Shown piece after piece: positions 132 to 18,649 of a stretch of DNA of 22,825 bases. Source of the stretch: a candidate division WOR-3 bacterium (GTDB lineage Bacteria; Hydrothermota; UBA3072; B12-G15); NCBI GenBank assembly GCA_965649055.1, contig CBFGJG010000029.1, positions 1-22,825 on the forward strand. The letters run 5' to 3'. Every line of letters starts with the position of its first letter. Position 1 is the first letter of the stretch. The position numbers and the translations under genes were made by a program. The notes below the pieces were generated by a model that was not told the origin of the DNA, searched no databases, and worked only from the letters and a program-made list of their open reading frames with translations.

Positions 132-1523
132 ATGAAATTAATAAGGATTAATGAAAAAATCATCTTTTTTTTATCTATTTTTTATATATTTTTTTTATTT
201 TTTTTATTTTATCCACCATTTTATTCAATAATGGATGAGTGTGATTATCTCACAACTTCCTATACTCTAAAAAAAGGAACTTTCTTTCTCGATAAGGCAG
301 GTATTTATCCAACAACTGCAACTGTTATTGGTGAAAAACACATGTTTTCAAAATTCCCACCAGGTAATTCTATTTTACTTTTTCCATTCACTTCAATTAA
401 TTGGCGTTTTGGATTTCTTGTTAATTTTATTTTGTATCTTTTAACTTTCTTCATTTTTTTACAAATCCTGACAATACTAAATATTCCTTATTATTTTTCC
501 ATTCTTTTACTTTTACATCCTTCATTAGTTCTGTATTCAAGAACAATGATGAGTGATATACCATCTATGTTTTTCATTCTATCCGGAATTTATCTAATCA
601 TGCGTGAGAAGTATTTTTTATCAGGTCTATTTCTTGGCTATTCATTACTACTGAGATATTCCAATGCCGTTATAATATTTGGGATATTGCTTGGTTACAT
701 TATTCTTAAAAGAAAGGCTATATTTTCTATCTTACTTGGAATATTGATATTCTTAGTAATCCAGGCAATTTACAATATATTTGTAATGGAAGGTTTATTC
801 GCACCTTTTTATCTACCTACTGGTGCTGGTGGTCATTCTTTGGGTTATTTAAAAAAAAGTGGGTTATACTACATCTTAGCATTAAATCTGATATACCCTC
901 TTATGCTTCTAATATTTTTTTCTTCTCTAAAACAAAAAAAATATATAATTCTCTCTCTTCCTACCCTATTAAATATCTTCTTCTTCTCATTTTATTATTA
1001 TATTGACAAAGGAAACACATTTTATGAGACGCTTATAAAGGGACAAAGATTTATGATTCCGGTTCTTCCTTTATTGATTATAATTTACTCTGATTTCATA
1101 AAAAAAATTAGATATGTAAAACATTTCTTATTCCTCTCTTCTATTTTACTTTTAATTATTTCTTTTTTAATAAGCCTTAAACTTTATAACTTTCAGAAAG
1201 AAAAATTACTGTTAAAAGACATAGTCTACAATAATACAATAGAATCTGACATTGTAATTTGTAATGGAGAAGTCGGCAAATTAATTAATCCATTTTTCGG
1301 TAACAAAAAATGGAAAGACTATTCAATTTATGGAAAACTGATCATTAAGAAGGATGATTTTAAAGACTATAAAAATATTTATCTCTGCTTTATTGATTCG
1401 GGTAAAGAAGGAAAAGAGAAAGAAATATTTTTTGATTCTGTTTTAGTTATCTTCAATGTTCAAAAAATTATTGAATTAGAAAAACCTAAATATCTTGTTA
1501 TTTATAGAGTTATAGATAATTAA
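132..1523 (+). CDS. Polytopic membrane glycosyltransferase, GT-C fold (PMT/ArnT-like)
   Basis: 463 aa with many hydrophobic TM segments, an acidic DE pair after TM1 (SIMDECDY), KFPPG, MSDIP and late RF-x-x-P motifs, and a soluble C-terminal tail, as typical of GT-C enzymes. Confidence 0.75.
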   Translation: MKLIRINEKIIFFLSIFYIFFLFFLFYPPFYSIMDECDYLTTSYTLKKGTFFLDKAGIYPTTATVIGEKHMFSKFPPGNSILLFPFTSINWRFGFLVNFILYLLTFFIFLQILTILNIPYYFSILLLLHPSLVLYSRTMMSDIPSMFFILSGIYLIMREKYFLSGLFLGYSLLLRYSNAVIIFGILLGYIILKRKAIFSILLGILIFLVIQAIYNIFVMEGLFAPFYLPTGAGGHSLGYLKKSGLYYILALNLIYPLMLLIFFSSLKQKKYIILSLPTLLNIFFFSFYYYIDKGNTFYETLIKGQRFMIPVLPLLIIIYSDFIKKIRYVKHFLFLSSILLLIISFLISLKLYNFQKEKLLLKDIVYNNTIESDIVICNGEVGKLINPFFGNKKWKDYSIYGKLIIKKDDFKDYKNIYLCFIDSGKEGKEKEIFFDSVLVIFNVQKIIELEKPKYLVIYRVIDN

Positions 1524-1524
1524 A

Positions 1525-2235
1525 TTATTTTCTCCCAATTGCAACAATTGATAACCCTATATGAGGAATAGACTTCTTTTCTACTTTTTCTATAAAAGGG
1601 ATTAATTTATCAAATAATAGAATCTGCCAGTACGATAGTCTTTCCTTTTTTCTCAATTTACTGGTTACAAACCAACCAAAAATACCTAAAAAATTGCTGT
1701 AATGTATTTTTTCAATTTTGAAACCAACCTCTTTTAATAAATTTTCCAATGGTTCTTTGTTATATCTTCTGAAATGTCCCAAGTTTTTATCAACATTACC
1801 AAACAAATAACTCAATGCAGGAACATATAAAAGTAATCTGCCACCTTTCCTGAGTAGTTTAAAAATATTTTCAAGTGCCTTTCTATCATCCTTTATATGT
1901 TCTAAAACGTTAACACAAACGATTGTATCAAAATGTCTATTTGATAAAGCAAGGACATCAGAAGAAGATATATCATAATTATAAAATTTAATTTTTGGAT
2001 AATCAATTCTAATATGGGAAATAAAATACTCAGATATATCAATACATTCTAATTCACCAAAATCTTTTAAATAATAAGTTAGGTTACCTATTCCACATCC
2101 AATTTCGAGTATTTTCTTTCCAATATATGGTCTGAATAAGTTTATAATCCATCTATTATAATTTGTAGTTAGTGAGAATGTTCTCAGAGTCTCATATGCT
2201 ATTAAAGATAGATTAAAATCTTTACTATTTAAAAT
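1525..2235 (-). CDS. Class I SAM-dependent methyltransferase (~236 aa); the ORF track shows only its C-terminal 96 aa
   Basis: Manual translation: the frame is open from 2238 to the stop at 1525-1527 and contains motif I (KILEIGCGIGNLT), CIDISEYF and FDTIVCVNVLEHIKDDRKALENIFKLLRKGGRLLLYVPA. No ATG/GTG/TTG upstream of 1815; start inferred at ATT 2233-2235 with GGAG 6 nt upstream. Confidence 0.85.
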   Translation of the reverse strand: MLNSKDFNLSLIAYETLRTFSLTTNYNRWIINLFRPYIGKKILEIGCGIGNLTYYLKDFGELECIDISEYFISHIRIDYPKIKFYNYDISSSDVLALSNRHFDTIVCVNVLEHIKDDRKALENIFKLLRKGGRLLLYVPALSYLFGNVDKNLGHFRRYNKEPLENLLKEVGFKIEKIHYSNFLGIFGWFVTSKLRKKERLSYWQILLFDKLIPFIEKVEKKSIPHIGLSIVAIGRK

Positions 2236-2944
2236 ATTCTACTCCGTTTTTAAATATCTTAAAACCATCACCACCATTTTTTGCATCAGGTGTAGAATGC
2301 CTGAAAATATTCCTTTCAGGATGTGGCATTAGACCAAAAACATTTCCTGTTATATCAGTCATACCTGCAATATCGAATTCTGAGCCTGAAGGATTAAAAC
2401 CAACATATTTTAAGGCAATAAGTTCATTTTCAATTATTAGATTTCTTGAAGCATCATCCTTAAATATTACCCTGCCTTCCTTGTTAGCAACAGGAAGCGG
2501 TATTTCATCTATATCAAAAAGAAAAGGTGTTCTTTTACTAGACCTTTTTACTTTTATCCATCCGTCATAAAACATACCAATTTTATTCGTGGTCAAGGTC
2601 ATAATCTGTTCGTCTGTTATTCCGGGTATTAAACCTGTCTTAACAAGTATCTGAAAACCATTACATATACCGATTATTAATCCTCCTCTATTGATAAACT
2701 CTTTCAATTCATTAAACAAAAAATTTTTTAGCAATATTGAAAAAACCTTCCCTGCACCAAGGTCATCTCCAAAAGTAAAACCACCCGGAATTGCTACAAT
2801 CTGAAATTCTTTAATCTTTTCCCTATTCTCTATAAGGCTTTTTATATATATGTTTTCAACAGATGCACCAGCTTTAATGAATGCAAATTCTGTTTCTCTA
2901 TCACAGTTTGTTCCCGGACCTCGCAGGTTTAGAACCTTTACCAT
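2225..2944 (-). CDS. purQ: Phosphoribosylformylglycinamidine synthase glutaminase subunit
   Basis: PGTNCD, PGGFTFGDDLGAG, GICNGFQILV (catalytic Cys) and GLMPHPER (His/Glu of the triad); adjacent to purL. Confidence 0.96.
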   Translation of the reverse strand: MVKVLNLRGPGTNCDRETEFAFIKAGASVENIYIKSLIENREKIKEFQIVAIPGGFTFGDDLGAGKVFSILLKNFLFNELKEFINRGGLIIGICNGFQILVKTGLIPGITDEQIMTLTTNKIGMFYDGWIKVKRSSKRTPFLFDIDEIPLPVANKEGRVIFKDDASRNLIIENELIALKYVGFNPSGSEFDIAGMTDITGNVFGLMPHPERNIFRHSTPDAKNGGDGFKIFKNGVEYFK

Positions 2945-5715
2945 TTTATTCCTTCCCTGTATATTTTATATACATCACTGATATTTAATGAAATTATTTC
3001 TCTTTTATCTTTAAAACACTTTATGTAATCTCTTATTGTTTTCCCAATTTTAATAAATGGAAGGCCTTGGAAAAATCTTTCGAATTCATCACTTTTATCC
3101 TTATCAACTTCGACAATAAATCTTGAATTTGATTCGCTGAATAAAAAAACAAAAGGATTTATTTGAGGAGCCAATTTTATCTCAGCACCTATTCTATTTG
3201 CAAAACACATTTCTGATAAAGAAACAATTAATCCACCATCTGAAATATCATGGATTGACTTGAATAAATTCCTTCTTATTCCATTTCTAATTCTCAAAAG
3301 TATATCCCTTGCAAAATCTGTATTTACCCTTGGGACCACACCGGATATATTTATTATTTTCGAGATCTGAGAACCGCCAAATTCCTCTTTTGTTTCTCCA
3401 ATCAGGTATATGAGATTATTCTCTTCCTTAAAATCGGAACTACAAATATTTTCACTATCTATTACAGATATTGCTGAAATTAACAATGTCGGCGGTATTG
3501 AGATTAAATCCTTATCAATCTTATATTTATTATTTAAACTATCTTTACCTGAAATAAAAGGAACACGATAGTATTTTGCAAAATCATAACAACCTTTTGC
3601 AGTCAATAATAGGTCTCCTAATACATATTCGTCTTCAACATCACCAAAACAAAAATTATCAAGTATAGCACATTTTTCTATATCCCCACCACAAGAAACA
3701 TTATTCCTTAAAGCTTCATCTATACAAGAAGCTGCCATCCAGTAAGGATTTATCTTACCAAAATTCGGATTTATTCCATTTGATATCACCAAAGCCTTAT
3801 TGGAATCAAGTAAAGGCTTTACTACTGCCCCATCCTGTGGTGAAGGATTCATTGGTTTTAACACACTTCCACCCTGAACCTCATGGTCATATTGTCTAAT
3901 AACCCATTCTTTACTTGCAATATCTGGTAGGGAAATCAATTTCAAAAACAATTCCTCATAATCTTCTGTATCAGGGATTTCTGTTATTGATTCTCTTTCT
4001 CTTATCTTAGCATTCAATACCCTCTTCGGTATACCATTATGCAAGAAATCCATATCAAGTTCACAAACCTTTTTTTCATTATAGTATAATTTTAATTTTT
4101 TATCATCTGTAAACTTTCCTAATACTGTTGCTTCAACATCTTCCTCCTTAAAAATTTTAATAATCCTGTCTAAATTTTTGTAATCTACTCCAAGAACCAT
4201 CCTTTCCTGAGATTCTGATATCCATATCTCAGTATATGATAATCCCTTATATTTCAAAGGGACCTTTTCAAGATGAACTTCTGCACCTGTGTCTTTCCCC
4301 ATCTCACCTATTGCAGAAGACAAACCACCTGCTCCACAATCAGTAATACTCTTTATCAATCCTTCATCTGTTGCCTTAAGGATACAATCCAGCATCTTTT
4401 TTTCTTCGATTGGATTTCCTATCTGAACAGCGGTTATTGACTTTTCAAAAGATTCATCATCAAGTTCTTTTGATGAGAATGTAGCACCATGAATACCATC
4501 CCTTCCTGTCCTACCACCAACAAGGAGAATTATATCCCCGGGCTCCACCTTCTTTTCAATATCTTTTTTCTTTATAATCCCAACACTACCACAAAAAACA
4601 AGTGGGTTATATAGAAAATCATCACTGAATATTATTGCACCATTCAATGTAGGAATACCCATTCTATTTCCATAATCCGCAACACCTTTTACGACACCTC
4701 TTATAATCCTTCTTGGTGGAAGATTAGGTGATTTTGAATCTGGATTAGGGAAACAAAAGATATCAGTGTTTGCAATTGGTTTTGCACCTTTCCCAGTTCC
4801 AATAGTATCCCTTATAACACCACCTATACCTGTTCCAGCACCACCATAAGGTTCAATCGCAGAAGGATGATTGTGCGTTTCGACCTTAAAAGTTACACCA
4901 TAATCTTTGTCGAATTCTATAACACCGGCATTATCTTTAAATACTGAAAGACAGATCTTCGAAGCGATTTCATCTGTTGCCTTCTTTATATAATCCTTAA
5001 AAAGAGAACCTTTATTTTCACCATTTAAAATAATATCTGCTTTAAAAGTTTTATGATAACAATGCTCACTCCAAGTTTGTGCTATTGTCTCAAGTTCACA
5101 ATCACTTGGATTCCTTCCCAAATCCACAAAATACTTCTTTATTGCCTTCATTTCTTCAAGTGATAAAGAAAGAACACCTTCTTTTGAAATCTTCAATAGT
5201 TCGTCATCTTTAGCATATAATATAGGAACTTCTATATATTTAAAATTATAATCCTGAACATATATAAATACCCTTTCTTCTTCTTCAATAACATCTTCTA
5301 TAACAGGATTTGACAGGATACTTTTTATAAGATATTCTTTTTCTTCCACTTTAATTTTACCTTTTATGTTATATCTTTTCCCTGTTCTTGCATTTTCAAC
5401 TTTAAGATTTAATGTATTACATATGTTGAGAAGGGTCTCTCCTGTTGAATCAAAAACAGATGGTTTAAAAGTGATAAGTATTGAATTGTCGAATCTCTTA
5501 AACGAATCGTTAATTATGTAATCTTCTATAACCGGGTCAACAATTATATTTTTAGCGATAAAATCTGCATCATTGTAAGAAATATTTCCTTTTATAAAAT
5601 AAACATCAACAACCTCTATATTATCAACATTTATACCGGAAAATGCAGCAAGTGTTTTTAATTCATTGCTTTCTCCCAATCCAAATTTTTTCGAAACCTC
5701 GATCTTATAAATCAT
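2938..5715 (-). CDS. purL: Phosphoribosylformylglycinamidine synthase synthetase subunit with N-terminal PurS-like extension
   Basis: WSEHCYHK, KVETHNHPSAIEPYGGAGTGIGGVIRD, GRDGIHGATFSS, DCGAGGLSS, SESQERM, QYDHEV, ISGKDSL and HDISDGG motifs. 925 aa, with ~150 extra N-terminal residues ending in DPVIE / NPVIE repeats. Confidence 0.96.
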   Translation of the reverse strand: MIYKIEVSKKFGLGESNELKTLAAFSGINVDNIEVVDVYFIKGNISYNDADFIAKNIIVDPVIEDYIINDSFKRFDNSILITFKPSVFDSTGETLLNICNTLNLKVENARTGKRYNIKGKIKVEEKEYLIKSILSNPVIEDVIEEEERVFIYVQDYNFKYIEVPILYAKDDELLKISKEGVLSLSLEEMKAIKKYFVDLGRNPSDCELETIAQTWSEHCYHKTFKADIILNGENKGSLFKDYIKKATDEIASKICLSVFKDNAGVIEFDKDYGVTFKVETHNHPSAIEPYGGAGTGIGGVIRDTIGTGKGAKPIANTDIFCFPNPDSKSPNLPPRRIIRGVVKGVADYGNRMGIPTLNGAIIFSDDFLYNPLVFCGSVGIIKKKDIEKKVEPGDIILLVGGRTGRDGIHGATFSSKELDDESFEKSITAVQIGNPIEEKKMLDCILKATDEGLIKSITDCGAGGLSSAIGEMGKDTGAEVHLEKVPLKYKGLSYTEIWISESQERMVLGVDYKNLDRIIKIFKEEDVEATVLGKFTDDKKLKLYYNEKKVCELDMDFLHNGIPKRVLNAKIRERESITEIPDTEDYEELFLKLISLPDIASKEWVIRQYDHEVQGGSVLKPMNPSPQDGAVVKPLLDSNKALVISNGINPNFGKINPYWMAASCIDEALRNNVSCGGDIEKCAILDNFCFGDVEDEYVLGDLLLTAKGCYDFAKYYRVPFISGKDSLNNKYKIDKDLISIPPTLLISAISVIDSENICSSDFKEENNLIYLIGETKEEFGGSQISKIINISGVVPRVNTDFARDILLRIRNGIRRNLFKSIHDISDGGLIVSLSEMCFANRIGAEIKLAPQINPFVFLFSESNSRFIVEVDKDKSDEFERFFQGLPFIKIGKTIRDYIKCFKDKREIISLNISDVYKIYREGIKW

Positions 5716-6623
5716 ATAAATCCTCTTGTGTTTTGAAGGTGTCCTCTAAATTTACTTGCAATTCTATATACTTCTAAATACTCTTCTCTTTTCAAAAATC
5801 TGTTTATTTCATCAAATTCCATTGCTTTGTAATATGGATAATACTGGTCCATCAAACTTATATATGTATTTTTTGAAACTTCATTGTACAAAAAATTTAA
5901 AGAGTCAACCGTTCCGCTAATATTATTGGGAAGAACAAGTAGCCTTACAAGTAAACCTTTTCTTGCAACTCCATCTTCCATGACTAAATCACCAACCTGT
6001 CTATACATTTCTTTTATTGCATTTCTATTATATTTGGCATAATTTTTTACATCTGAAAATTTTTCACCATTTTCATTTGAACTGTATCTCATATCAGGCA
6101 TATAAATATCAACTATTCCATCAATCAGTTTTAATGTGTCAACTTTTTCATAACCGAAGGTATTATACACAATTGGGATATTTAATCCATCTTTTTTTGC
6201 AATAAAAATTGCATTAACTATTTGTGGAATAAAATGTGTTGGTGTAACAAGGTTAATATTATGCGCACCTTTAATCTGTAATTCAAGCATAATAACTGAA
6301 AGTTCTTCAACACTTACATAGTGTCCTTCACAGAACTGTGATATTGAAAAATTCTGGCAGTAAACACATCTTGAAGGGCATCCTGAGAAGAATACTGTTC
6401 CAGAACCATTCCTACCTGAAACCGGTGGTTCTTCTCCAAAATGCAGATGAAAAGATGAAATCTTCAATCTTGAATCGCTATTACATTTTCCTTTTTCTCC
6501 CTTATTTCTATTAACCTTACACTCATTTGGGCATAAAACACACCTATCAAGAATCTTATTTAATTCTTCTATCCTCTTTTTAAAAACAAGGTCATCTATT
6601 CTCAAATAACCACTTATAAACAT
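5712..6623 (-). CDS. Radical SAM protein, PflX-like family
   Basis: CxxxCxxC (CPSRCVYCQN), N-terminal CVLCPNECKVNR..GKC, HFGEEPPVSG, NINLVTPTH, DIYMPD and MDQYYP. Confidence 0.88.
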   Translation of the reverse strand: MFISGYLRIDDLVFKKRIEELNKILDRCVLCPNECKVNRNKGEKGKCNSDSRLKISSFHLHFGEEPPVSGRNGSGTVFFSGCPSRCVYCQNFSISQFCEGHYVSVEELSVIMLELQIKGAHNINLVTPTHFIPQIVNAIFIAKKDGLNIPIVYNTFGYEKVDTLKLIDGIVDIYMPDMRYSSNENGEKFSDVKNYAKYNRNAIKEMYRQVGDLVMEDGVARKGLLVRLLVLPNNISGTVDSLNFLYNEVSKNTYISLMDQYYPYYKAMEFDEINRFLKREEYLEVYRIASKFRGHLQNTRGFI

Positions 6624-6629
6624 ATTACC

Positions 6630-6657
6630 ATTATAAAAACAATAAAATTCAAGTCAA
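6630..6657 (-). promoter_or_regulatory. Sigma70-type promoter (TTGACT-N16-TATAAT) for the radical SAM-purL-purQ-MTase unit; leaderless
   Basis: The minus strand reads TTGACT (6657-6652), 16 nt, TATAAT (6635-6630), GGTAAT, ATG (6623-6621). Confidence 0.7.
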
Positions 6658-6671
6658 GTTGATAATTTTAT

Positions 6672-6710
6672 TTGACTTTTATAATCATATATCTAAAATA
6701 GCAGAAAGGA
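6672..6710 (+). promoter_or_regulatory. Sigma70-type promoter (TTGACT-N16-TAAAAT) and RBS for the NifU-like gene
   Basis: TTGACT 6672-6677, TAAAAT 6694-6699, AAGGA 6706-6710, ATG 6717. Confidence 0.6.
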
Positions 6711-6716
6711 AATAAT

Positions 6717-6935
6717 ATGGAAAAGGAAGTTCAAAGGGTTCTTGAAAGAATAAGAAGTATTTTAAGAAGGGATGGTGGGGATATAAGACTTATAAGTGTA
6801 AAAGATGGCATTGTTAAGGTAAGGTTTGAATACGCTTGCAGAGGTTGTCCATCAATGAATGATACTTTAAGAAATATTGTTGAAAAAGAAATAAAAAGAG
6901 AAATCCCTGAGATTAAAAGAGTTGAAGCAGTTTAA
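6717..6935 (+). CDS. NifU C-terminal domain (Nfu-type) Fe-S carrier protein
   Basis: 72 aa, IRSILRRDGGDIRL...ACRGCPS (Nfu CxxC); has RBS and promoter. Confidence 0.9.
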   Translation: MEKEVQRVLERIRSILRRDGGDIRLISVKDGIVKVRFEYACRGCPSMNDTLRNIVEKEIKREIPEIKRVEAV

Positions 6936-8506
6936 TACCTGAAACTGCTCCCACCAATAAATTCCCTCAATATTGAAGTAGGTGGAATTTCATCTTCAGA
7001 TATTGGAAGGAAATGATTCAAGAAATTTAGCAATCTCAATGCTTCACAATAATATTCATCATCATAAGTTATAGACCTTAAAGGAGTTTCAACATAATTC
7101 TTTAAAACTGCAAGTTCATAAACAAGTGAGGAATTGAACATAACATCTGCGTTTTCTTGGAATTTGAAGATATGTTCTTCTTCGCCCTTTATTACACTCT
7201 TCCATCTTGCAAGTGTAACAGCGGGTGGATTCCCGCGAAATAAAGTATCCCTAAAAATCCTTCTTATCAGTCTTACATCCCTTGTTGGTATTCTGTTCAG
7301 GCTATTGATATTAAGTTGAGTCAATGCGCTAACATATATTTTAAATTTTAATTCTTCTTTTATTGACTCTGTTAAAAGAGGATTCAATGAATGTAATCCT
7401 TCAATAATTATAACCTCATCCTTTTCAAGTTTCATTTTATTACCATTCCATTCTCTTTTTCCCTTTTTAAAATTAAATGTTGGAATTTCAATTTCCTCTC
7501 CCTTTATCAGACTCGTAAGGTGTTTATTAAAAAGGTCCAAATCCAACGCTTTTATAGAATCAAAATAATAAGCACCTGTTTCATCTCTTGGTGTCTTATC
7601 TCTATCAACAAAATAATCATCAAGACCTATCACCTTTGGTTTTATTCCGTTTACTCTGAGATGTACACCAAGCCTCTTTGAAAAAGTTGTCTTACCAGAA
7701 GAACTTGGTCCAGCTATAAGTATTATCTTTGATTTTCTTTTAGTAATTTCGTCTGCAATATAAGCAATCTTTTTTTCATGAAAAGACTCTGCTACCTTTA
7801 TTATATCAGATATTCTGTTGGAAACTATAGCGTCATTCAATTCTCCAACACTTCCAATTCCAAGTATTTCAGCCCATTGATTTGATTCGTTATAGGTATT
7901 CAGCAATTTCGTCCTTTTTTCTATCTTTGATAGCCTGAAAGGATCTTCAGATGATGGCAAAATAATAAGGAATCCATTATCAAGTTCTTTTATGTGAAAA
8001 ATCTTTATAAATCCAGTTGAAGGTAGTAACGGTCCTGCAAAATATCTCATATAATTATTAAGGCAATAGATTGGAATAAATTCTTTTGAAAGGTATTTTA
8101 TAGTATTAAAATCTTCTATGCTCCCATCCTTCTTAAAGATGTTCATAGCCTCTATCTTGGATACCCTTGTTTCAACAATTCTAACATCATCTTTTATGAC
8201 TTTTAGCATCTCTTTCTTTACTTCTCTAAGGTCGAGTTTCCCTTTTACAATTTCTCCAAATAATGCCCCACCAAATGAATGCTCTATCTTAATTGTGCAA
8301 TTATGTTTATATGCTATATAAGAAAAAAGAAATGATAAAGTCCTTTCATATGTTCTCACACCTTCTCTATGAGACATATCAATCAGTTTGAGGGAGCCAT
8401 ATGATGGTATATAAGAACCAAGACCAGTATAGATATTATCTACAAGTGCAAGTGTAGTTGGATATTTAATATCTTTCAAAATATTTATAACATTCTTTTC
8501 ATTCAT
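6932..8506 (-). CDS. Long-form nucleoside/uridine kinase family protein with ThrRS-like N-terminal region
   Basis: Walker A IAGPSSSGKTT, LDDYFVDR, IIEGLHSLNP, RLIRRIFRD, FNSSLVYEL and SILREFIGGS, typical of the ~550-aa Udk-like family. Confidence 0.88.
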   Translation of the reverse strand: MNEKNVINILKDIKYPTTLALVDNIYTGLGSYIPSYGSLKLIDMSHREGVRTYERTLSFLFSYIAYKHNCTIKIEHSFGGALFGEIVKGKLDLREVKKEMLKVIKDDVRIVETRVSKIEAMNIFKKDGSIEDFNTIKYLSKEFIPIYCLNNYMRYFAGPLLPSTGFIKIFHIKELDNGFLIILPSSEDPFRLSKIEKRTKLLNTYNESNQWAEILGIGSVGELNDAIVSNRISDIIKVAESFHEKKIAYIADEITKRKSKIILIAGPSSSGKTTFSKRLGVHLRVNGIKPKVIGLDDYFVDRDKTPRDETGAYYFDSIKALDLDLFNKHLTSLIKGEEIEIPTFNFKKGKREWNGNKMKLEKDEVIIIEGLHSLNPLLTESIKEELKFKIYVSALTQLNINSLNRIPTRDVRLIRRIFRDTLFRGNPPAVTLARWKSVIKGEEEHIFKFQENADVMFNSSLVYELAVLKNYVETPLRSITYDDEYYCEALRLLNFLNHFLPISEDEIPPTSILREFIGGSSFRY

Positions 8507-10019
8507 TGACCATTATCACCCTTTCTTTATAAAAATATGCCACATTGTTTCTGCATATCTCTTTTACTTTATACATTGCAATATCAGCATTTCTAATTAA
8601 TTCTTCTTTGTTCTTTGCATAGTTGGGAAATGAAGACACACCAAAACTTGCCCTTATTCTAACCCTGCATTTTTTTGATATCTCAAAATCTTTTTCAGCA
8701 AGCTTTTTTCTCAAAAATTCGGCAAAATTAATGGCATCCATCAATTCAGTCCTTGGTAGTATCAGTATATACTCATCGCCACCATACCTAACTGATATAA
8801 CACCATCAGGAAGATATTTTTTTATCCTCTTTGCAACAAGTTGTAATGTTTTACTGCCTACAAGATGGTCATATTCATCATTAACCCATTTAAAATGGTC
8901 AATATCCATAAAGATTAATGAGACTGGGTATTTTTTCTCTTTTGCATCAATTAGTATTTTTTCAAGTGGTTCTTCAATAAAGCGATAGTTGTAAAAACCC
9001 GTTAAATCATCTTTATATGCAAGTTCTAATATTCTATTATATAATTTTGCGTTTTCAATTGCTATTGTGAGCTGGTTTGCAACCTGAAGAAGAACATCAA
9101 CCTCTTCTTTATTAAAATCATAATTTTTTAAACTCCCAATATCAATAACTCCAAGTATGTTACCTCTTTTCTTCAGTGGAAGGTATAATTCAGATTTTGT
9201 CTTTAAAATACTTTTATCTTCAGGTATATTATTTACAATAATAAAACTTTTTTCTTTGCGGATATTTTTAATGACATCTTTCTGTTCGAAATAATTTATG
9301 TCAATTTTAAATCCTTTTGAAATAGAAAAATCACCAATCAATCTATCATCTGTAAAGACACCTATATAAACATAATGATAGTTAAAGGCATCTCTTATAA
9401 TCTCTGCACTTTTTTTTAATAATTTACTAATTTCAAGAAATGATGTTATATTTCTGTTTATTCGAGAGATTAAGGTTAAATATTTTATCTTCTGATTAAG
9501 TTTTTTCACAAGTGTTGCATTTTCAAAAGCAAGTGCTGCTTGTTCAACATAAGTTTTAACTAATTTTAAGTCATTATTACTAAATTCTGATTCTCCCTTC
9601 TTATTTATAATTTCAATGACACCAACGAGATTTCCTTTACTGATCATCGGTATTGCAAGTATGGATTTTGTTTTGAATTTACTTTTCTTATCAATATCGG
9701 AAAAAAACCTTGGATCTTTACTTACATCGGGAACCAGAATGGGTTTTTTGTTCTTCACAACCCAACCTACTATTCCTTTATCCTTAGGTATTCTTAAACC
9801 TGTTAATTCTTCCTTTTTTTCACCAAAAACATCATAGAATATCAATTCATTCGTAGATTCATCTATAAGAAATAATGTCCAAGCTTCAGCCTGTATAATT
9901 TCAGATATATTCAGCATTATTATATGTAGAATTTCATCAATTGTTTTCCTTGGTGAATTTATAGCTTTTATTATCTCTGCGGCTATTTCGAATTCAGATC
10001 TCATCTTTTCTTTCTTCAA
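8499..10019 (-). CDS. GAF-GAF-GGDEF dinucleotide cyclase; Hypr-type (candidate 3',3'-cGAMP synthase)
   Basis: Two GAF domains, then DDLTGFYN, MDIDHFKWVND, HLVGS, RYGGDEY, SFGVS and ADIAMYKVK. The track start is TTG at 10019; in-frame ATG at 10004 is an alternative. The domain call is firm; product specificity is inferred. Confidence 0.9.
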   Translation of the reverse strand: MKKEKMRSEFEIAAEIIKAINSPRKTIDEILHIIMLNISEIIQAEAWTLFLIDESTNELIFYDVFGEKKEELTGLRIPKDKGIVGWVVKNKKPILVPDVSKDPRFFSDIDKKSKFKTKSILAIPMISKGNLVGVIEIINKKGESEFSNNDLKLVKTYVEQAALAFENATLVKKLNQKIKYLTLISRINRNITSFLEISKLLKKSAEIIRDAFNYHYVYIGVFTDDRLIGDFSISKGFKIDINYFEQKDVIKNIRKEKSFIIVNNIPEDKSILKTKSELYLPLKKRGNILGVIDIGSLKNYDFNKEEVDVLLQVANQLTIAIENAKLYNRILELAYKDDLTGFYNYRFIEEPLEKILIDAKEKKYPVSLIFMDIDHFKWVNDEYDHLVGSKTLQLVAKRIKKYLPDGVISVRYGGDEYILILPRTELMDAINFAEFLRKKLAEKDFEISKKCRVRIRASFGVSSFPNYAKNKEELIRNADIAMYKVKEICRNNVAYFYKERVIMVNE

Positions 10020-12486
10020 GAATAACTTGATATACTATTTTTATTCTTCCTTTTTCCGTAATAAAATCTCCATTCTCCTGAATATCAAACTCAAAATTAG
10101 CAGGATTTATTACAAGCTGTTTACTCTTATCAAGTTCATCAATATAATAAATTCCGGCTCTTTTTATCCTGCATCCTTCAAAATAGTACTCTCTTTCATC
10201 CTCTCTCATTTTTAGAATTTGCAAAAGTTTATCCGAAATATCTTTTTCAGTCATTTTTGTTTCAAACTCCTTGAACAGAGAAAATCTTTCAACATTCAAT
10301 ATTATATTTATTAATGTAGTATGATCTATAAGAATAACAGACCTTTCCTTTGCTTTGCCGGATGAAAAGACACTTGCTTCGTGAACAAGAAAACCTGTAA
10401 TATCAGGATCACCAAAGGAATTTGGAGTAAATACCATATCTCTCTGAGGTAATCCACTGACAATTCCAACACCAAGTTTGAAAAGGGATTTAAATTCAGG
10501 TGGTAGAAGTGCATATGTCACTCCTTCATGTAATAGTTCTTTTTCCGCAATTTCACCGAACCATTCCCTATAGTTTACGTAATTCTCCTTTACAAAATCT
10601 TCTGCAGATTGAACGATACCAATAGCAGTTTTTAAAGCCTTGTATCCAGAATTTGGGTCTTTTAATATTGCAAATTCATCCTCAACTGCTGTAGAAAATC
10701 TTATACTTAGATTTTCTTTTAACATAAAAGTTTTAAAGATATCATTATACAATTGATTTGAATTACCGCCAAACCATATAATTCCGCCATCGCCTATTTC
10801 TTTAAGTAAAAAACCTCCACCTTTTTTAGCATTATTCAATACAGCATAATTAAATTTATTCATTATCATTCTTTGTTTTTCTGCATCTTTTAGGCGATGA
10901 GCCATAAATGTTGAACCCCTTATATCATATATCAAAACAGTTACGACAGAAGAAAAATTTCTCGTTAGAATATTTCCTATTTTCCTATTTTTTTCAATAA
11001 TTGCAGCAGAAATCTTCGGTGTTATTTTACTTGATTTTGAAAATCTATGGAATTTACCAGAAGGTAAAAGCTCAATTCCAACAAGATGTAATGCATCCCT
11101 TGCATCAAGTAATGTTTTAGGATTTTGAGAATCTACTCTTGGTGGCCATACGAAAAGTAAATCCGATACTATCTTGTAAGAAACCATAGGCTCAAAGATG
11201 TTTTCAAATATTGCACGGTAATTTTTTAAAACCTTAACAGGGTCAATAATAACATTTTTCTTTGAACGCTCAACAAGTGTTTTGAATCTATCCGGGTCCT
11301 TTTTATATTCTCTTAGAAATATCTTCTGAATATTCTTCAACACATTGGGCTCTATTATCTCAAAATATTTATCAGATTTCCAGTTATTTATCACAAAGTC
11401 CTCTATCTCCCAATCAGAACCTTTAGGTAAAAATGCCTTGAGTTTTTCTGATGTTATATTCTGTAATTCTCTATTTTCCTGTATACTTCTTCCCACCTCA
11501 AGCATCTTTGATGTATATCCTCTGAAAAGTTTTATGTGGAATTTAATCCTCTTCATCATATTCAGTATTGCATCCTGAGTTCCGTCTATTGCCTTACTTA
11601 TATCCCCTTTTAAACTTATATCAAGAACATCTTGCAATTCATGTAAAGATTTTTCGATAATATTTTTTGTTTCGGTTTTAACCTTTAATGATAGCATATC
11701 AAGTTCTTTATCTCTTTCCCTTAGAATTTTTTCATTTTGTTTGGCTTTTAAAGACACTAATTTTGCAAATTTTACTTGGGTGTCTTCTGAAAGAGGAAGG
11801 AATTGTTCGAATGGGAAACTGTTTAAGTCTGAAAAATCACTTATCTGTGTTGATTCGAGTAATTTAATTATATGTATGTCTTCCCTTTTGATAAAACTAT
11901 CCATTATAATTTTATTTACCTCACGGAAGATTGATGCATCAAAATCATAATTTTTCAATAATCTATTAATATCTTCGAGTGTTACACTTTTTATATTAAC
12001 ACCTAAGAAGTAAGGTCCTTTGTGAAAAAAATCAAAAACCTGTTTTTCTGTTGCACTTAAATGCTGGGTGGACTCAACAAAAATCTTTAATATTTTAGAA
12101 CCAAAATTTAAGGATTCATCAATAGAACTAAATATAGGTGGAAATACTTTCATAAGGAATGCCTCAAATAATAAAGCGAATTCGGATGAAAATGAAAGTA
12201 TATTATTGTAAACATCACTTACAATCTTTGAAACTTCTTCTGCACTTCCGGAAACTGCAAAAAGTTTCATTTTTTCCTCTGTTGATAATTCAACAACTAT
12301 ACTTTCGTCAAAGGTTGATAAAAACTTGATAAAAAAATCTGGAAGTTTTCTTATATCAAAGCATCTTTCTAATAACTTTTTATTCTTTAGGAATGTATCA
12401 CTTTTTACAAGGTTTTTTTTTAAATTTATTATATAATTACTTGATAACTCTGCGGAAGATTCTATATCAGATAGTTTTACTATCAT
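9994..12486 (-). CDS. 830-aa soluble protein: helical N-terminal region plus divergent class III nucleotide-cyclase-like C-terminal domain
   Basis: VTVLIYDIRGST (D521), KEIGDGG (K562, D566), LGVGIVSG, PDITGFLVHEAS (D695) and ILID, in the order of class III cyclase motifs; paralogous to the 21269 gene. Confidence 0.7.
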   Translation of the reverse strand: MIVKLSDIESSAELSSNYIINLKKNLVKSDTFLKNKKLLERCFDIRKLPDFFIKFLSTFDESIVVELSTEEKMKLFAVSGSAEEVSKIVSDVYNNILSFSSEFALLFEAFLMKVFPPIFSSIDESLNFGSKILKIFVESTQHLSATEKQVFDFFHKGPYFLGVNIKSVTLEDINRLLKNYDFDASIFREVNKIIMDSFIKREDIHIIKLLESTQISDFSDLNSFPFEQFLPLSEDTQVKFAKLVSLKAKQNEKILRERDKELDMLSLKVKTETKNIIEKSLHELQDVLDISLKGDISKAIDGTQDAILNMMKRIKFHIKLFRGYTSKMLEVGRSIQENRELQNITSEKLKAFLPKGSDWEIEDFVINNWKSDKYFEIIEPNVLKNIQKIFLREYKKDPDRFKTLVERSKKNVIIDPVKVLKNYRAIFENIFEPMVSYKIVSDLLFVWPPRVDSQNPKTLLDARDALHLVGIELLPSGKFHRFSKSSKITPKISAAIIEKNRKIGNILTRNFSSVVTVLIYDIRGSTFMAHRLKDAEKQRMIMNKFNYAVLNNAKKGGGFLLKEIGDGGIIWFGGNSNQLYNDIFKTFMLKENLSIRFSTAVEDEFAILKDPNSGYKALKTAIGIVQSAEDFVKENYVNYREWFGEIAEKELLHEGVTYALLPPEFKSLFKLGVGIVSGLPQRDMVFTPNSFGDPDITGFLVHEASVFSSGKAKERSVILIDHTTLINIILNVERFSLFKEFETKMTEKDISDKLLQILKMREDEREYYFEGCRIKRAGIYYIDELDKSKQLVINPANFEFDIQENGDFITEKGRIKIVYQVILEERKDEI

Positions 12487-13795
12487 CCGAAATTCCGTTA
12501 AATCTAAACCTGCTTATTTTAACAGATGGACAGATTGTGTGCGAGGGGGTTGGTATGCTATAAAAATCGTTCCCTGTATGAACCTCTATTTCGGAAGATA
12601 TAGATTCAATATTTGAAAATGCCTCTACCATACTCTGAGTAAATCTAAGATTCTTTAGCGGCTTTACTATCTTCCCGTTTTTAATAAGAAAAGTTCCGTA
12701 TCTTGTCATTCCGGTTAGAGTTACATCAAAAGGTCTTACTGTATTTACATAATGAAAATTAGACACATATATACCATTATCTACAGATGAAACTAAATCT
12801 TCTAAGCTACTATTACCTTTTTCCATTACAAGATGGTTTGGAATTGGTCCTGAAACTATCCCTCCACTACTATGACCTGTTGTATCCTTACCTATCTTTT
12901 TACCATAGTATCTATCACAGGTCACGTTTTTACATATTCCTTTTTCAATGATAGTTACCTTTTTTCTTTCAATACCCTCCTCGTCAAAATGGAAAGGAAA
13001 TCCAGATTCATAGTCTTTATCATCATAGATTGTAACATTTTCAGAAAAAACCTTTTTATTTTCTTGGAAGAATGATGTTTTCTCATAAACAGCTTTTGCA
13101 TTAAATGAAAGATATCCCATATGACCTAATATCGAAGCAACTGCAGGGCTTTCAAGTATAACAGTATATTCACCAGGTTCAATAATATGTGGTTCACTCT
13201 TGAACATTATTTTCTTTTTTAAATCATCCAATTTATCAATGTCAAAATCAAGCGTATTAAATGATTTAAATGCTGAATGCTTATTATTTATATAAATAAT
13301 GCTGACATAGTCCATTGGTATAGATTGAAAGAGTCTTAAACCTGCTGAATTCCCAATTGCCCAGGTAACATTACCTGACTTAAGAATGCCATAAGCTGAA
13401 TACTTACCGGACTTCTTAATTATCTTCTTTACAACATTAAAACATAATTTAACATCTATATTTCTATTTGTTTCTTCAGTAGATGTGGCTGTTGAACTAC
13501 TCACAAAGGGCGGCAGGTCATCAATTGGCTTTGAAACCCTTGCTATCTTTCTTGCCTCTTTAATTGCATTTTTTATTAATTTAGTCTCAAGATATGGTGC
13601 GACTGATGAAGCAATTCGATTTTTATTTATCACTTTAACAAAAACCTTAACATCATTCAAAATTGAATTTTGATGGATAAAAGAATTTGCATATCTTATA
13701 AAAATAGACTCATCCATTGAAAATGTTAGTTGAACATCATCTGTTCCTTTTAATACCTTGTCAAAAATTTCAAATACTTTTTCTTTGTTTATCAC
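12467..13795 (-). CDS. TldD/PmbA family protein, TldE/PmbA-like
   Basis: RYANSFIHQN, EPGEYTVILESPAV, FDEEG, TGHS, TGMTRYGTFLIKNG and NLRFTQS; no HExxGH zinc motif. Confidence 0.88.
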   Translation of the reverse strand: MINKEKVFEIFDKVLKGTDDVQLTFSMDESIFIRYANSFIHQNSILNDVKVFVKVINKNRIASSVAPYLETKLIKNAIKEARKIARVSKPIDDLPPFVSSSTATSTEETNRNIDVKLCFNVVKKIIKKSGKYSAYGILKSGNVTWAIGNSAGLRLFQSIPMDYVSIIYINNKHSAFKSFNTLDFDIDKLDDLKKKIMFKSEPHIIEPGEYTVILESPAVASILGHMGYLSFNAKAVYEKTSFFQENKKVFSENVTIYDDKDYESGFPFHFDEEGIERKKVTIIEKGICKNVTCDRYYGKKIGKDTTGHSSGGIVSGPIPNHLVMEKGNSSLEDLVSSVDNGIYVSNFHYVNTVRPFDVTLTGMTRYGTFLIKNGKIVKPLKNLRFTQSMVEAFSNIESISSEIEVHTGNDFYSIPTPSHTICPSVKISRFRFNGISDDSKTI

Positions 13796-15078
13796 ATCTT
13801 CCTCCTTAAAAATTCACCTTCATTATAAACAATGTTTCCACCAACAACGGTCATTAAAACCTTACCTTTCATCTTCCAGCCAATAAATGGGGAATTTTTT
13901 GATAATGAATAAAAATTCTCTTCTTTTACAACCCATTCCTTCTTTAAATCAACAATAGTAAAATCTCCAAAACCACCATCTTTTATCTCTCCGTATGGAA
14001 CATCAAAAATCATTGCTGGTTTTGAAGATAGATGACTTATAAGGGACTTAAGAGGTAATAACCCTTCATTTACAAATTTTGTAAAAAGAGAAGAAAAAGA
14101 TGTCTCAAGCCCTGTAATTCCAAACGGAGCTAAAGGAAATTCAAGTTCTTTTGTATACAACGGATGCGGTGCATGGTCTGTAGCGATAGCGTTAACAAAT
14201 CCTTCTTTCAAAGCCTTTAGTAACGCTTCACAATCACTTTTCTTTCTTAATGGTGGATTCATTTTGAAATTTGAATCAGTCAACCTCAAATCATTCTCGG
14301 AAAGTATTAAGTGATGCGGTGTAACATCAAATGTAACATTACAACCAGAATCTCTACCAAATTTAATTATATCTAATGAAGTTTGGGTACTGATATGTGC
14401 AAAATGTATTGGGGAATTCAAATACCTTGCAATCTGAATATCCCTCGAAACAATAATGCTTTCGGATATATCGGGAATACCTTTAACACCATATGAAATT
14501 GATATAAAACCTTCGTTTATTATTCCATTATCTGATAAATCTTTATCTTCAGGATGTTCTATAAAAATTGCCTTTGTGTTTTTTAAATATTCAAGGACTC
14601 TCCTAACAATTTTTGAACTTTTTATTGTATTTCCATCATCTGTGAATGCCTTGCATCCTATCTCATACATCTCTTTCATCTCTGTCAATTTCTCACCTGC
14701 TCTACCAATGGTTGCTGCACCAACAGGATAAATTCTCAAAAGACCAACTTCTTCTGCCCTTCTAAGAATAAAACTTACCATTCCTTTATTATCAATAGGT
14801 GGATTGGTATTTGGGAAAACAAATATTGAAGTGTATCCTCCTGAAACTGCCGCTTTACTTCCACTATCAAAATTTTCTACATCTTCACCACCAGGCTCCC
14901 TTATGTGTGTGTGTATATCGATAAACCCCGGAAATATATACAGCCCTTTCCCGGATATAGAGATTTCAGGAATACCGATTTCCTTCTTTACAATGCCATT
15001 TTCAATATATATATTACCAATCTCATCAATATTATTCAAAGGGTCAAAAAGATTTACATCCTTTATAAGTAATTTCAT
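13792..15078 (-). CDS. pyrC: Dihydroorotase (type I, long form)
   Basis: PGFIDIHTHIREPG, PNTNP, FTDDG, EHPED, HFAHIST, KMNPPLR and ATDHAPH metal/substrate motifs; follows pyrB. Confidence 0.95.
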   Translation of the reverse strand: MKLLIKDVNLFDPLNNIDEIGNIYIENGIVKKEIGIPEISISGKGLYIFPGFIDIHTHIREPGGEDVENFDSGSKAAVSGGYTSIFVFPNTNPPIDNKGMVSFILRRAEEVGLLRIYPVGAATIGRAGEKLTEMKEMYEIGCKAFTDDGNTIKSSKIVRRVLEYLKNTKAIFIEHPEDKDLSDNGIINEGFISISYGVKGIPDISESIIVSRDIQIARYLNSPIHFAHISTQTSLDIIKFGRDSGCNVTFDVTPHHLILSENDLRLTDSNFKMNPPLRKKSDCEALLKALKEGFVNAIATDHAPHPLYTKELEFPLAPFGITGLETSFSSLFTKFVNEGLLPLKSLISHLSSKPAMIFDVPYGEIKDGGFGDFTIVDLKKEWVVKEENFYSLSKNSPFIGWKMKGKVLMTVVGGNIVYNEGEFLRRKM

Positions 15079-15998
15079 TCTTCACCCCTTGGAAGTCCAC
15101 TTAAAAGATAAATTATTGCCATTCTTACTGCTACACCATTGGTTACCTGTTGCAAAATTAACGACCATGGTCCATCAGCAACATCTGGTGCGAGTTCAAC
15201 TCCTCTATTTACAGGTCCTGGATGCATTATAACAACATCTTTTTTAGCAAATTTTTGAAGAACTTCTTTTGTAACAGAATAAAATCTAATATACTCATTT
15301 ATTGTTGGTATGAAACAGCCATCCTGTCTCTCTTTCTGTATTCTTAAAACATAAACAACATCCTTATTTACTATTGCTTCTTTCAAACAATATGTAATAT
15401 CAACCCCGTAATTAATAAAATATTCAGGCAAAAGTGTAGGTGGACCACATAAAGTTATCTTGGCTCCCATTTTTTTCAATGCAAGTATCAATGACCTTGC
15501 AACCCTTGAATGGAGTATATCACCGATTATAGAAACATTTAAATCTCTTAAATCACCAAACTTTTCAACCATACTTAGAATATCCAATAAAGCCTGAGTA
15601 GGATGTTCGTGTGAGCCATCACCTGCGTTGATAACAGAAGCGTTTATTCTTTCAGAGAGATAATGTGGAGCAAAAGGAACACTGTGTCTTATAACAACAA
15701 TATCAACCTTCATTGCTTCAATATTCCTTGCAGTATCAAGTAATGTTTCACCTTTCTCAACGCTTGAAAAAGACTTGGATATGTTAACTGTGTCAGCTGA
15801 AAGTCTTCTCTCAGCAATTAAAAATGAATTAAGAGTCCTTGTGCTTGGCTCAAAGAAAAGATTGGCAACGGTTAAACCCCTTAATGTTGGAACCTTCTTT
15901 ATTTTCCTTTCAAGAACAAACTTCATACTTTTTGCTGTCTCAATAATCTGATTAATATCTTCGAGTGTTATATCTTCAATACCAAGTAGATGCTTCAT
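15075..15998 (-). CDS. pyrB: Aspartate carbamoyltransferase catalytic subunit
   Basis: FFEPSTRT, KGETLLDT, NAGDGSHEHPTQALLD, GDILHSRVARS, LRIQKER and MHPGP. Confidence 0.97.
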   Translation of the reverse strand: MKHLLGIEDITLEDINQIIETAKSMKFVLERKIKKVPTLRGLTVANLFFEPSTRTLNSFLIAERRLSADTVNISKSFSSVEKGETLLDTARNIEAMKVDIVVIRHSVPFAPHYLSERINASVINAGDGSHEHPTQALLDILSMVEKFGDLRDLNVSIIGDILHSRVARSLILALKKMGAKITLCGPPTLLPEYFINYGVDITYCLKEAIVNKDVVYVLRIQKERQDGCFIPTINEYIRFYSVTKEVLQKFAKKDVVIMHPGPVNRGVELAPDVADGPWSLILQQVTNGVAVRMAIIYLLSGLPRGEE

Positions 15999-16540
15999 AA
16001 TTTATCATCCTTGCGAATTATGAATACACCTTCTTTACCATCAACCTCTTTAATTAAAACTGATACATTCTCATTTTCACCACATTCAACTATCTTTCCT
16101 GTAAAGTCTGGACAAATTGGTAATTCCCTTCCTCCTCTATCAATGACAACCAAAAGAAATATTCTTTTAGGTCTTCCAAAATCTATTAATTCGTCTATTG
16201 CTGCTCTTATTGTTCTTCCGGTATAAAGAACATCATCAACAAGCAAAACCACTTTACCGTCAATCGAAAAATCTATTTCAGTTGTTCCTATCAAAGGTTT
16301 TGGGCCAACAGTAGACAAATCATCTCTATAGAGTGTGATATCAATAGCACCAAAATCAATTTTTAAATTTGTCTTTGTTTTCAAAATCCTCATTATTCTT
16401 TTAGCTATTATATCACCTCTATTTTTTATACCTATTATGCAGATATGTTCGTATTTATCTTTAAAACTATTTATAACATCCATAGAAAGGTTTGTTATAA
16501 TCCTTTCTAATTCTTCATTATTGAAAATTATTTTTTCCAT
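15995..16540 (-). CDS. pyrR: Bifunctional pyr regulator / uracil phosphoribosyltransferase PyrR
   Basis: GIKNRG, DITLYRDDL, LLVDDVLYTGRTIRAA (PRPP motif) and DRGGRELPI; directly upstream of pyrB. Confidence 0.95.
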   Translation of the reverse strand: MEKIIFNNEELERIITNLSMDVINSFKDKYEHICIIGIKNRGDIIAKRIMRILKTKTNLKIDFGAIDITLYRDDLSTVGPKPLIGTTEIDFSIDGKVVLLVDDVLYTGRTIRAAIDELIDFGRPKRIFLLVVIDRGGRELPICPDFTGKIVECGENENVSVLIKEVDGKEGVFIIRKDDKL

Positions 16541-18603: not shown

Positions 18604-18608
18604 AAATA

Positions 18609-18649
18609 CCTCCTTTTTTATATTTTAAAACACTAAAAAAATTTGTCAA
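18609..18649 (-). promoter_or_regulatory. Sigma70-type promoter (TTGACA-N16-TAAAAT) and RBS AGGAGG for the SBP-TonB/pyr operon
   Basis: TTGACA at 18649-18644 (overlapping the valS TGA stop), TAAAAT at 18627-18622, AGGAGG at 18614-18609, ATG at 18603. Confidence 0.7.

Follow-up and report, generated by a model that had tools for sequence, protein, structure and literature searches.

The window analysed here, a stretch of 22,825 nucleotides from a candidate division WOR-3 bacterium (contig CBFGJG010000029.1 of assembly GCA_965649055.1, positions 1 to 22,825), carries on its minus strand a gene for a protein in which two GAF domains precede a GGDEF domain at the C-terminus. The protein is probably a Hypr-type GGDEF enzyme with 3',3'-cGAMP (cyclic GMP-AMP) as a major product, and the gene is likely to encode a GAF-regulated GMP-AMP cyclase of the GacA/GacB kind. 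The published rules for such enzymes are quoted below from passages of three reports (PMC6456294, PMC9140294 and 10.1101/600031). A Hypr GGDEF is defined by a Ser or Thr where PleD has D344 and GacA has Ser348 (PMC6456294, PMC9140294), and Ser389, the GGDEY motif and Tyr345 of the protein agree with all sequence rules given in PMC6456294. This supports the Hypr signature that an earlier note had read from the DNA.

The gene occupies positions 8499-10019 (-) and encodes 506 amino acids if read from TTG at 10019, with the stop codon at 8501-8499. The database form of the protein (P0002) has 501 amino acids and begins at the ATG at 10004, which is the likely start of the gene; residues are numbered here in the 506-amino-acid form unless P0002 is named. 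The GGDEF catalytic domain (8547-9020 (-), residues 334-491; Pfam GGDEF, E 5.8e-36) is preceded by GAF-A (9528-9941 (-), residues 27-164) and GAF-B (9054-9431 (-), residues 197-322), the latter being the weaker GAF match (GAF_2, E 1.5e-10). The window corresponds to contig C29 of a genome assembly whose 85 contigs total 2.08 Mb, with a completeness of 93.8% and a G+C content of 31.6%.

Active site of the GGDEF domain

The motif region translates as DIDHFKWVNDEYDHLVGSKTLQLVAKRIKKYLPDGVISVRYGGDEYILILP, and within the longer stretch DIDHFKWVNDEYDHLVGSKTLQLVAKRIKKYLPDGVISVRYGGDEY the motif NDxxGHxxGD is spelled NDEYDHLVGS. The last residue of this motif, Ser389 (AGT, 8853-8855 (-)), is the Hypr selectivity residue, and the GGDEY active-site motif (GGT GGC GAT GAG TAT, residues 413-417) lies at 8769-8783 (-). 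Ser389 precedes the first Gly of GGDEY by 24 residues, which is the spacing of D344 to G368 in PleD, and PleD alignments by sequence and by structure agree with it. Tyr345 (TAT, 8985-8987 (-)) occupies the cross-dimer position, and Asn380 (8880-8882 (-)) aligns with GacA Asn339 and PleD N335, the residue of the sugar-face contact to the base. Asp384 (8868-8870 (-)) replaces the Gly of the GH motif, which reads DH, and PDGV (8799-8810 (-)) stands where an RxxD inhibitory site (I-site) would be expected, equivalent to PleD R359-D362; the I-site is absent. The earlier note had described the altered motif, the two codon positions, the spacing, the Gly-to-Asp replacement and the missing I-site in the same way, and all of these readings hold.

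A phmmer search with the GGDEF domain against all chains of the Protein Data Bank (PDB) gave 6d9m as the top match (E 3.2e-27, ungapped over 160 residues), followed by PleD (E 2.1e-22). Entry 6d9m is a T4-lysozyme fusion of a Hypr GGDEF of Geobacter metallireducens. Since this alignment is free of gaps, the residue equivalence to GacA can be read by plain offsets: Ser389 corresponds to GacA Ser348, Asn380 to Asn339, Tyr345 to Tyr304 and GGDEY to the GGDEF of GacA (Asp374, Glu375). The AlphaFold (AF2) model of the domain has a mean predicted local distance difference test (pLDDT) value of 94.5. It aligns with 6d9m over 169 residues at a root-mean-square deviation of 1.7, and its residues 1-170 align with PleD 284-454. 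In the latter superposition model residue 61 falls on PleD 344, so that Ser389 is placed there by structure as well as by sequence; this answers the question, raised earlier, whether the serine might lie outside the base-binding position. The metal Asp, the base Asn, GGDE and the phosphate Lys/Arg, named here by their roles in PleD, align with both PleD and GacA.

PleD of Caulobacter, a canonical diguanylate cyclase, thus has the same fold, the same spacing from position 344 to GG and the same catalytic positions, except for the base-reading ones: Asp344 of PleD is replaced by Ser, the cross-dimer Arg by Tyr and RxxD by PDGV. GacA (GSU1658 / Gmet_1914; Rec-GGDEF; 6D9M) has an HLVGS stretch identical to that of the WOR-3 protein and shares with it the cross-dimer Tyr, Asn339 and the central Asp of GGDE[F/Y]. 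It differs in its input, a receiver domain in place of the GAF-GAF tandem, and in its I-site (R393); GacA is inhibited by cyclic di-GMP (c-di-GMP), whereas the WOR-3 protein has no RxxD. The DH reading of the GH motif also sets the WOR-3 protein apart, as does its lineage.

The three signature positions agree with what is reported of the mechanism. GacA Ser348 forms a hydrogen bond with the Watson-Crick face of the purine, and GGDE[F/Y] is the exclusive motif of natural Ser/Thr GGDEFs; according to the Goldilocks model, a Ser combined with GGEEF is too far from Mg for substrate binding (PMC6456294). The GGDEY spelling of the WOR-3 protein, which could otherwise be mistaken for a degenerate motif, conforms to this rule. 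Of predicted diguanylate cyclases, 94% have an Arg at the cross-dimer position, where it gives a preference for guanine; the GacA mutation Y304R shifts the product towards c-di-GMP, and natural Hypr enzymes with cross-dimer Tyr, Ser, Ala or Gln make mostly cGAMP (PMC6456294). In Bdellovibrio bacteriovorus Bd0367 the replacement S214D gives an almost pure c-di-GMP synthase, and I-site mutants no longer co-purify with dinucleotides (PMC9140294).

Conservation of the serine form

The genome encodes nine GGDEF domains, of which only the one described here has Ser at the selectivity position. The other eight have Asp, with a cross-dimer Arg in seven and His in one, as read by eye. The Ser form is a property of one paralogue, and there is no lineage-wide drift.

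Of the 8000 candidates scored in a database search with the full-length protein, 1069 reached E <= 1e-20; the 120 best of these were tabulated. Those nearest to the protein bear the label 'candidate division WOR-3 bacterium', and others are assigned to Thermodesulfovibrionales, Nitrospirota and Limnocylindrales. Among these 120 clusters, the protein itself included, the selectivity position is Ser in 109, Gly in 8, Ala in 2 and Asp in 1; none has a cross-dimer Arg, and all 120 have GGDE[F/Y]. As the earlier note had predicted, the name under which such proteins pass is that of a plain diguanylate cyclase, which is given to all 120; the NCBIfam label is the same (TIGR00254).

The three positions also go together in a scan of species genomes, from which the best 80 of 595 stretches were considered, a sample in which WOR-3 genomes are not represented. 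The 52 Ser loci all have GGDE[F/Y] and no cross-dimer Arg. Among the 22 Asp loci, 17 have the Arg and 12 have GGEEF. The remaining loci, four with Asn, one with Ala and one with Thr, all have GGDEF and no cross-dimer Arg. Ser-type Rec-GGDEF proteins were found in Myxococcus vastator and in a Desulfuromonadales metagenome-assembled genome (MAG), and in a Ser-type locus of a Bdellovibrionales MAG (L136) the receiver match before the GGDEF domain is partial and below the threshold. Ser-type GAF-GGDEF proteins occur in Malonomonas, Nitrospiria, Methylomirabilota and Acidobacteria. In 29 Ser-type relatives from the database listing, D367, K372, N375, D376, H380, S384 and R406 (P0002 numbering) are invariant, and so are GGDEY, K481 and R485 (P0002 numbering). 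The catalytic residues of the Ser-type GGDEF are under selection, as judged from this conservation.

A Ser-type orthologue is present in 22 of 41 genomes (the genome itself and 40 relatives), namely in 4/4 genomes of family f1, 17/20 of f2 and 1/1 of f3. All but one are full-length; the exception, in G024, is truncated and has Gly at position 384. The cross-dimer residue of the orthologues is Ser, Ala or Tyr and never Arg. An RxxD I-site was found in none of the 21 full-length Ser-type orthologues, and the cross-inhibition by c-di-GMP known from GacA, GacB and Bd0367 is, on this sequence evidence, lost in the lineage. Position 384 is Asp in four of the 21, those of f1, and Asn in 17, order-level relatives with f2 among them, while nearly all other Ser-type proteins in the database and species-genome listings keep the Gly of the GH motif. 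Ser/Thr forms make up 0.17% of GGDEF domains (PMC9140294). The serine is more than a chance replacement, because it occurs in one of nine domains of the genome and in the orthologues of 22 of 41 genomes, is accompanied by two further signature positions and belongs to so rare a form.

In five more distant genomes the selectivity residue is Gly (four) or Ala (one), and the query found no orthologue in the rest. These five orthologues (Gly in L026, L041, L042 and L043, Ala in L044; genomes G025, G027, G033, G035 and G029) come from the same phylum and keep GGDEY and a non-Arg cross-dimer residue; four of them, all except L043, lie beside the cyclase-like gene described below. Their nucleotide specificity is not predictable from the published rules. 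The match in G035 (L043, G035:C22) contains in-frame stops (one TGA and one TAG), and it is in two pieces, as is that in G029 (L044, G029:C101); both may be broken genes or assembly errors.

Candidate phosphodiesterase and search for receptors

The HD-GYP protein PmxA, which has RxxQ instead of Rxx(K/R), prefers cGAMP, and the mutation Q518R reverses this preference (10.1101/600031). The earlier note had suggested looking for a phosphodiesterase of this type, and one candidate was recognised by its signature. The genome encodes seven HD-GYP domains, of which five have Rxx(K/R), one is degenerate and one has RSYQ. The last belongs to a protein of 447 amino acids (G000:C19:1124-2464; HD_5, E 6.1e-24), in which RSYQ aligns with RPYK of PmGH (4mcw). 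Its sequence agrees with the Rxx(Q/N) signature of PmxA-type cGAMP phosphodiesterases (10.1101/600031), to which it may be assigned as a candidate.

The distribution of this HD-GYP protein follows that of the serine. Of the 22 genomes with a Ser-type GGDEF orthologue, 21 encode an orthologue of it that reads RxxQ; the one that does not is 70% complete. RxxQ does not occur where the GGDEF orthologue has Gly or Ala (0/5), as the HD-GYP orthologue is absent from three of these genomes and has RxxR or RxxK in two. RxxQ is also found in three genomes in which no GGDEF orthologue was detected, two of them 62-78% complete. Such a pattern is what a cGAMP writer and eraser pair would be expected to look like. 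In a 95%-complete relative in which no GGDEF orthologue was found, the HD-GYP protein reads RIYH (L070, G009:C12).

The search for receptors in the genome gave no match to the GEMM-I riboswitch (RF01051), the family under which the GEMM-Ib riboswitches proposed by the earlier note would fall, and none to the c-di-GMP-II riboswitch (RF01786); no PilZ domain was found either. No Rfam family has a match within the window. The riboswitch result lends no support to cGAMP signalling; nor is it counter-evidence, since the genome is 93.8% complete. An anti-phage defence function was also considered and set aside: the GGDEF protein, the products of both neighbouring genes and the HD-GYP protein have 0 PADLOC matches.

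Sensor domain and the upstream cyclase-like gene

The best solved matches of GAF-A are 1ykd (3e-25), PDE5 3mf0 (4.3e-25) and 5w10 (7.3e-25), all of them GAF domains of cyclic-nucleotide cyclases and phosphodiesterases. Entry 1ykd is CyaB2 and 5w10 is the cAMP-bound GAF of Lcd1, and these GAF domains bind cyclic nucleotides. GAF-A also carries INKKGESEFSNNDL, an NKFD(L) version of the NKFDE motif.

Upstream of the GGDEF gene lies a gene (9994-12486 (-)) for a protein of 830 amino acids; counted from ATG 10004, the last 11 nucleotides of this upstream gene are shared with the beginning of the GGDEF gene. The protein has no match among Pfam and NCBIfam families, PF00211 included. Its C-terminal part of about 380 amino acids (9997-11139 (-)) is a class III cyclase-homology domain that is very divergent and contains an insert, with the cyclase-like motifs VLIYDIRGSTF ... 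LKEIGDGG; some JGI records of relatives bear the name 'class 3 adenylate cyclase'. A profile of 75 sequences of the family gave a weak match to CyaB (3r5g) over the cyclase-like stretch (E 0.0034), and hhalign comparison of the family with seven of the genome's own canonical cyclase domains gave a probability of 96.3% (E 1.8e-9). The AlphaFold model of the last 381 residues (pLDDT 85.2, predicted TM-score 0.87) has CyaC as its top structure matches (1wc3, E 5.7e-8; 1wc1, E 6.1e-8), followed by CyaB (3r5g) and Cya2, and the TM-score of the 1wc1 match, normalised to the target, is 0.75. Both metal Asp residues and the Lys of K..GD are invariant in the 75 sequences and fall on the canonical positions. 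The VNxAxR position reads VHEASV, with no Arg. By model and by profile, the C-terminus of the protein has a class III cyclase-homology fold.

The N-terminal part of about 450 amino acids (11140-12486 (-)) has no Pfam or NCBIfam family. Weak hits of the family profile to long-helix proteins, e.g., apolipoprotein A-I (E 0.003), point to a helical or coiled structure.

Elsewhere the genome encodes no fewer than eight canonical class III cyclase proteins, on contigs C1, C9, C16, C17, C22, C48 and C62; several are in open frames of more than 1000 amino acids, and two have tandem cyclase domains. Cyclic mononucleotides are therefore expected to be plentiful in this organism.

Proposed pathway and alternative explanations

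In the proposed mechanism, a pair of GGDEF domains would dimerise with one nucleoside triphosphate (NTP) bound to each. The short Asp of GGDEY would position Mg suitably for a Ser enzyme, and Tyr345 would stack on either purine across the dimer, so that ATP and GTP would be converted mainly into 3',3'-cGAMP, with some c-di-GMP. The output would probably be switched on by GAF-A through a small ligand, most likely a cyclic mononucleotide. No feedback by c-di-GMP would be expected because the RxxD I-site is missing, and the signal would probably be removed by the HD-GYP protein at G000:C19:1124-2464, the only one in the genome with RxxQ.

A relay from a cyclic mononucleotide to cGAMP may be the simplest model, given that GacB is cAMP-activated and GAF-A resembles GAF domains of cyclic-nucleotide signalling. 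A more extended version of it is possible but rather doubtful. In this two-messenger relay, the upstream cyclase-like protein would act on GAF-A through its product, a cyclic mononucleotide and possibly an unusual one, or by direct binding to the GGDEF protein. GAF-A would then turn on cGAMP synthesis, which the missing I-site would uncouple from c-di-GMP, the co-evolved RxxQ protein would erase the signal, and the module could report the status of the nucleotide pool, given its surroundings of pyrimidine and purine genes and the uridine-kinase-like gene at its side. Such a relay, if real, would give an uncultured phylum a full cGAMP pathway that works without riboswitches.

Several observations weigh against a Hypr assignment. 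The structural matches of the domain to PleD (Z 26.3) and 6d9m (Z 26.1) are tied, and the GH motif has become DH (most orthologues have NH), a change seen in none of the characterised Hypr enzymes considered. Ser alone is insufficient: the D-to-S form of GSU3350 remained a pure diguanylate cyclase, and four of five engineered D-to-S mutants were dead (PMC6456294). The empty searches for GEMM-I and c-di-GMP-II riboswitches and for PilZ domains belong here too, as does the fact that the co-variation of Ser and RxxQ comes from close kin (two families and one genome) and amounts to one or two evolutionary events and is no statistic. The trees, built from rows picked by similarity to the query, are poorly resolved. 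In a FastTree tree of 155 rows, limited by the short domain, the Ser label changes 8 times against 41 times with shuffled labels. It changes 6 times in a quick IQ-TREE tree of 70 hand-picked rows, which comprise the nine domains of the genome, 11 orthologues, 19 Ser-type or other non-Asp loci of the scan, including the examples named by lineage above, all Asp-type loci and seven database hits. In favour of the assignment, forcing the 38 non-Asp rows into one group apart from the 32 Asp rows gives a log-likelihood 24 above that of the free tree, and this constrained tree is not rejected (approximately unbiased test, p-AU 0.776). The group was set by the trait itself, and the result is compatible with one Hypr-type clade and is no proof of one.

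The GSU3350 mutant might be taken to mean that the WOR-3 protein is an ordinary diguanylate cyclase, making essentially only c-di-GMP in the cell despite its serine. Two natural Ser enzymes, Cabther_A1065 and Ddes1475, do lean towards c-di-GMP (PMC6456294), and the genome has the parts for c-di-GMP turnover, with eight Asp-type GGDEFs, one EAL domain and five canonical HD-GYPs. Both of those enzymes, however, have a cross-dimer Arg, where the WOR-3 protein has Tyr and its orthologues Ser or Ala, and the co-varying RxxQ HD-GYP would be hard to account for; we consider this explanation unlikely. The main product could instead be c-di-AMP or another purine dinucleotide, made in a pocket remodelled by Asp or Asn at position 384. 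The in-vitro products of Hypr GGDEFs include all three dinucleotides, and further purine NTPs can serve as substrates (PMC6456294). The G-to-D/N replacement at 384 is a conserved, lineage-specific trait, with D in four and N in 17 of the full-length Ser-type orthologues. A contact of residue 384 with the base is nevertheless a supposition, and published work links the RxxQ signature of phosphodiesterases to cGAMP (10.1101/600031), which makes a different main product improbable. The altered GH motif, the missing I-site and the inactivity of most engineered D-to-S enzymes (PMC6456294) would also suit a catalytically dead GGDEF with a nucleotide-binding or scaffolding role. The dead mutants, however, were GGEEF proteins, whereas GGDEY fits the Goldilocks rule (PMC6456294), and none of the 29 relatives departs from the metal Asp, Asn, GGDE, Lys and Arg; loss of activity is very improbable.

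Relation to characterised Hypr enzymes

Synthesis of cGAMP by a Hypr-type GGDEF is the preferred explanation. In GacB of Myxococcus xanthus (MXAN_2643; 10.1101/600031) a GAF sensor likewise precedes a Ser-type GGDEF. GacB is activated by cAMP with a half-maximal effective concentration (EC50) of about 79 nM, and M. xanthus also has an RxxQ HD-GYP protein, PmxA, as the WOR-3 genome has its own (10.1101/600031). The two proteins, compared here by their descriptions, differ in the number of GAF domains, one in GacB and two here. GacB is inhibited by c-di-GMP, while the I-site is missing in the WOR-3 protein, and the operon with a cyclase-like gene, conserved here, is not described for GacB in the passages of 10.1101/600031 considered. 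Bd0367 (DgcA) has Ser at the selectivity position as well, but combines it with a receiver input and an intact I-site (R260), and yields both messengers in vivo (PMC9140294), in contrast to the GAF-GAF architecture without an I-site in the WOR-3 protein.

Hypr enzymes were reportedly first published in 2016. Their structure and rules (2019, PMC6456294) and the GAF-linked, cAMP-activated GacB (2019, 10.1101/600031) are already published. A GAF-linked Hypr protein is thus known from GacB; what is added here is the lineage, the loss of the I-site, the co-varying RxxQ HD-GYP and the coupled cyclase-like partner. The literature collection searched has no paper joining 'WOR-3' and 'GGDEF', and among 15 of 24 papers listed none joins 'Hypr' and 'Nitrospir'. 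The characterised cases of cGAMP made by GGDEF enzymes come from Geobacter, Myxococcus and Bdellovibrio, and all published sequence rules now apply to a protein of WOR-3, an uncultured lineage. Many Ser-type GAF-GGDEF proteins are encoded in MAGs labelled Nitrospirota, Acidobacteria, Methylomirabilota and others, all of them annotated as diguanylate cyclases, and the cGAMP signal may be much more widespread than the share of 0.17% suggested (PMC9140294). The lineage offers a natural I-site-less Hypr candidate, a putative writer and eraser pair that change together and a conserved cyclase-like partner, and the WOR-3 module may serve as a concrete model of cross-talk between cyclic mononucleotides and cGAMP.

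Gene neighbourhood

The gene downstream of the GGDEF gene (6932-8506 (-)) overlaps its stop by 8 nucleotides and encodes 524 amino acids. The C-terminal half of the product belongs to the uridine-kinase/PRK family, and the N-terminal part of about 250 amino acids is weakly similar to threonyl-tRNA synthetase (TIGR00418, E 1.5e-4). The trio of the 830-amino-acid, GGDEF and kinase-like genes is predicted to be a co-translated unit. Among 30 loci, including that of the window, a homologue of the 830-amino-acid gene directly adjoins the GGDEF gene in 25, and the uridine-kinase-like gene follows directly downstream in 21, being kept within the order. Missing neighbours are mostly due to contig ends, paralogues and distant families.

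The trio sits in a long minus-strand run of nucleotide-metabolism genes (2225-21261 (-)), as recognised by Pfam matches. In order, it holds genes for a valS-type tRNA synthetase, a phosphoribosyltransferase (pyrR/upp-like), pyrB, a pyrC-like amidohydrolase and a TldD/PmbA-like protease; then come the trio and genes for a radical-SAM protein, a PurS-PurL fusion of 925 amino acids and PurQ. Two open reading frames of the window, at 132-1523 (+) (463 amino acids) and 21269-22789 (-) (506 amino acids), have no Pfam match at E <= 0.1. The protein of 691 amino acids encoded at 16528-18603 (-) is an unusual fusion, in which a family-5 solute-binding domain (SBP_bac_5, E 9.8e-70) is joined to TonB_C (E 1e-19) at the C-terminus.

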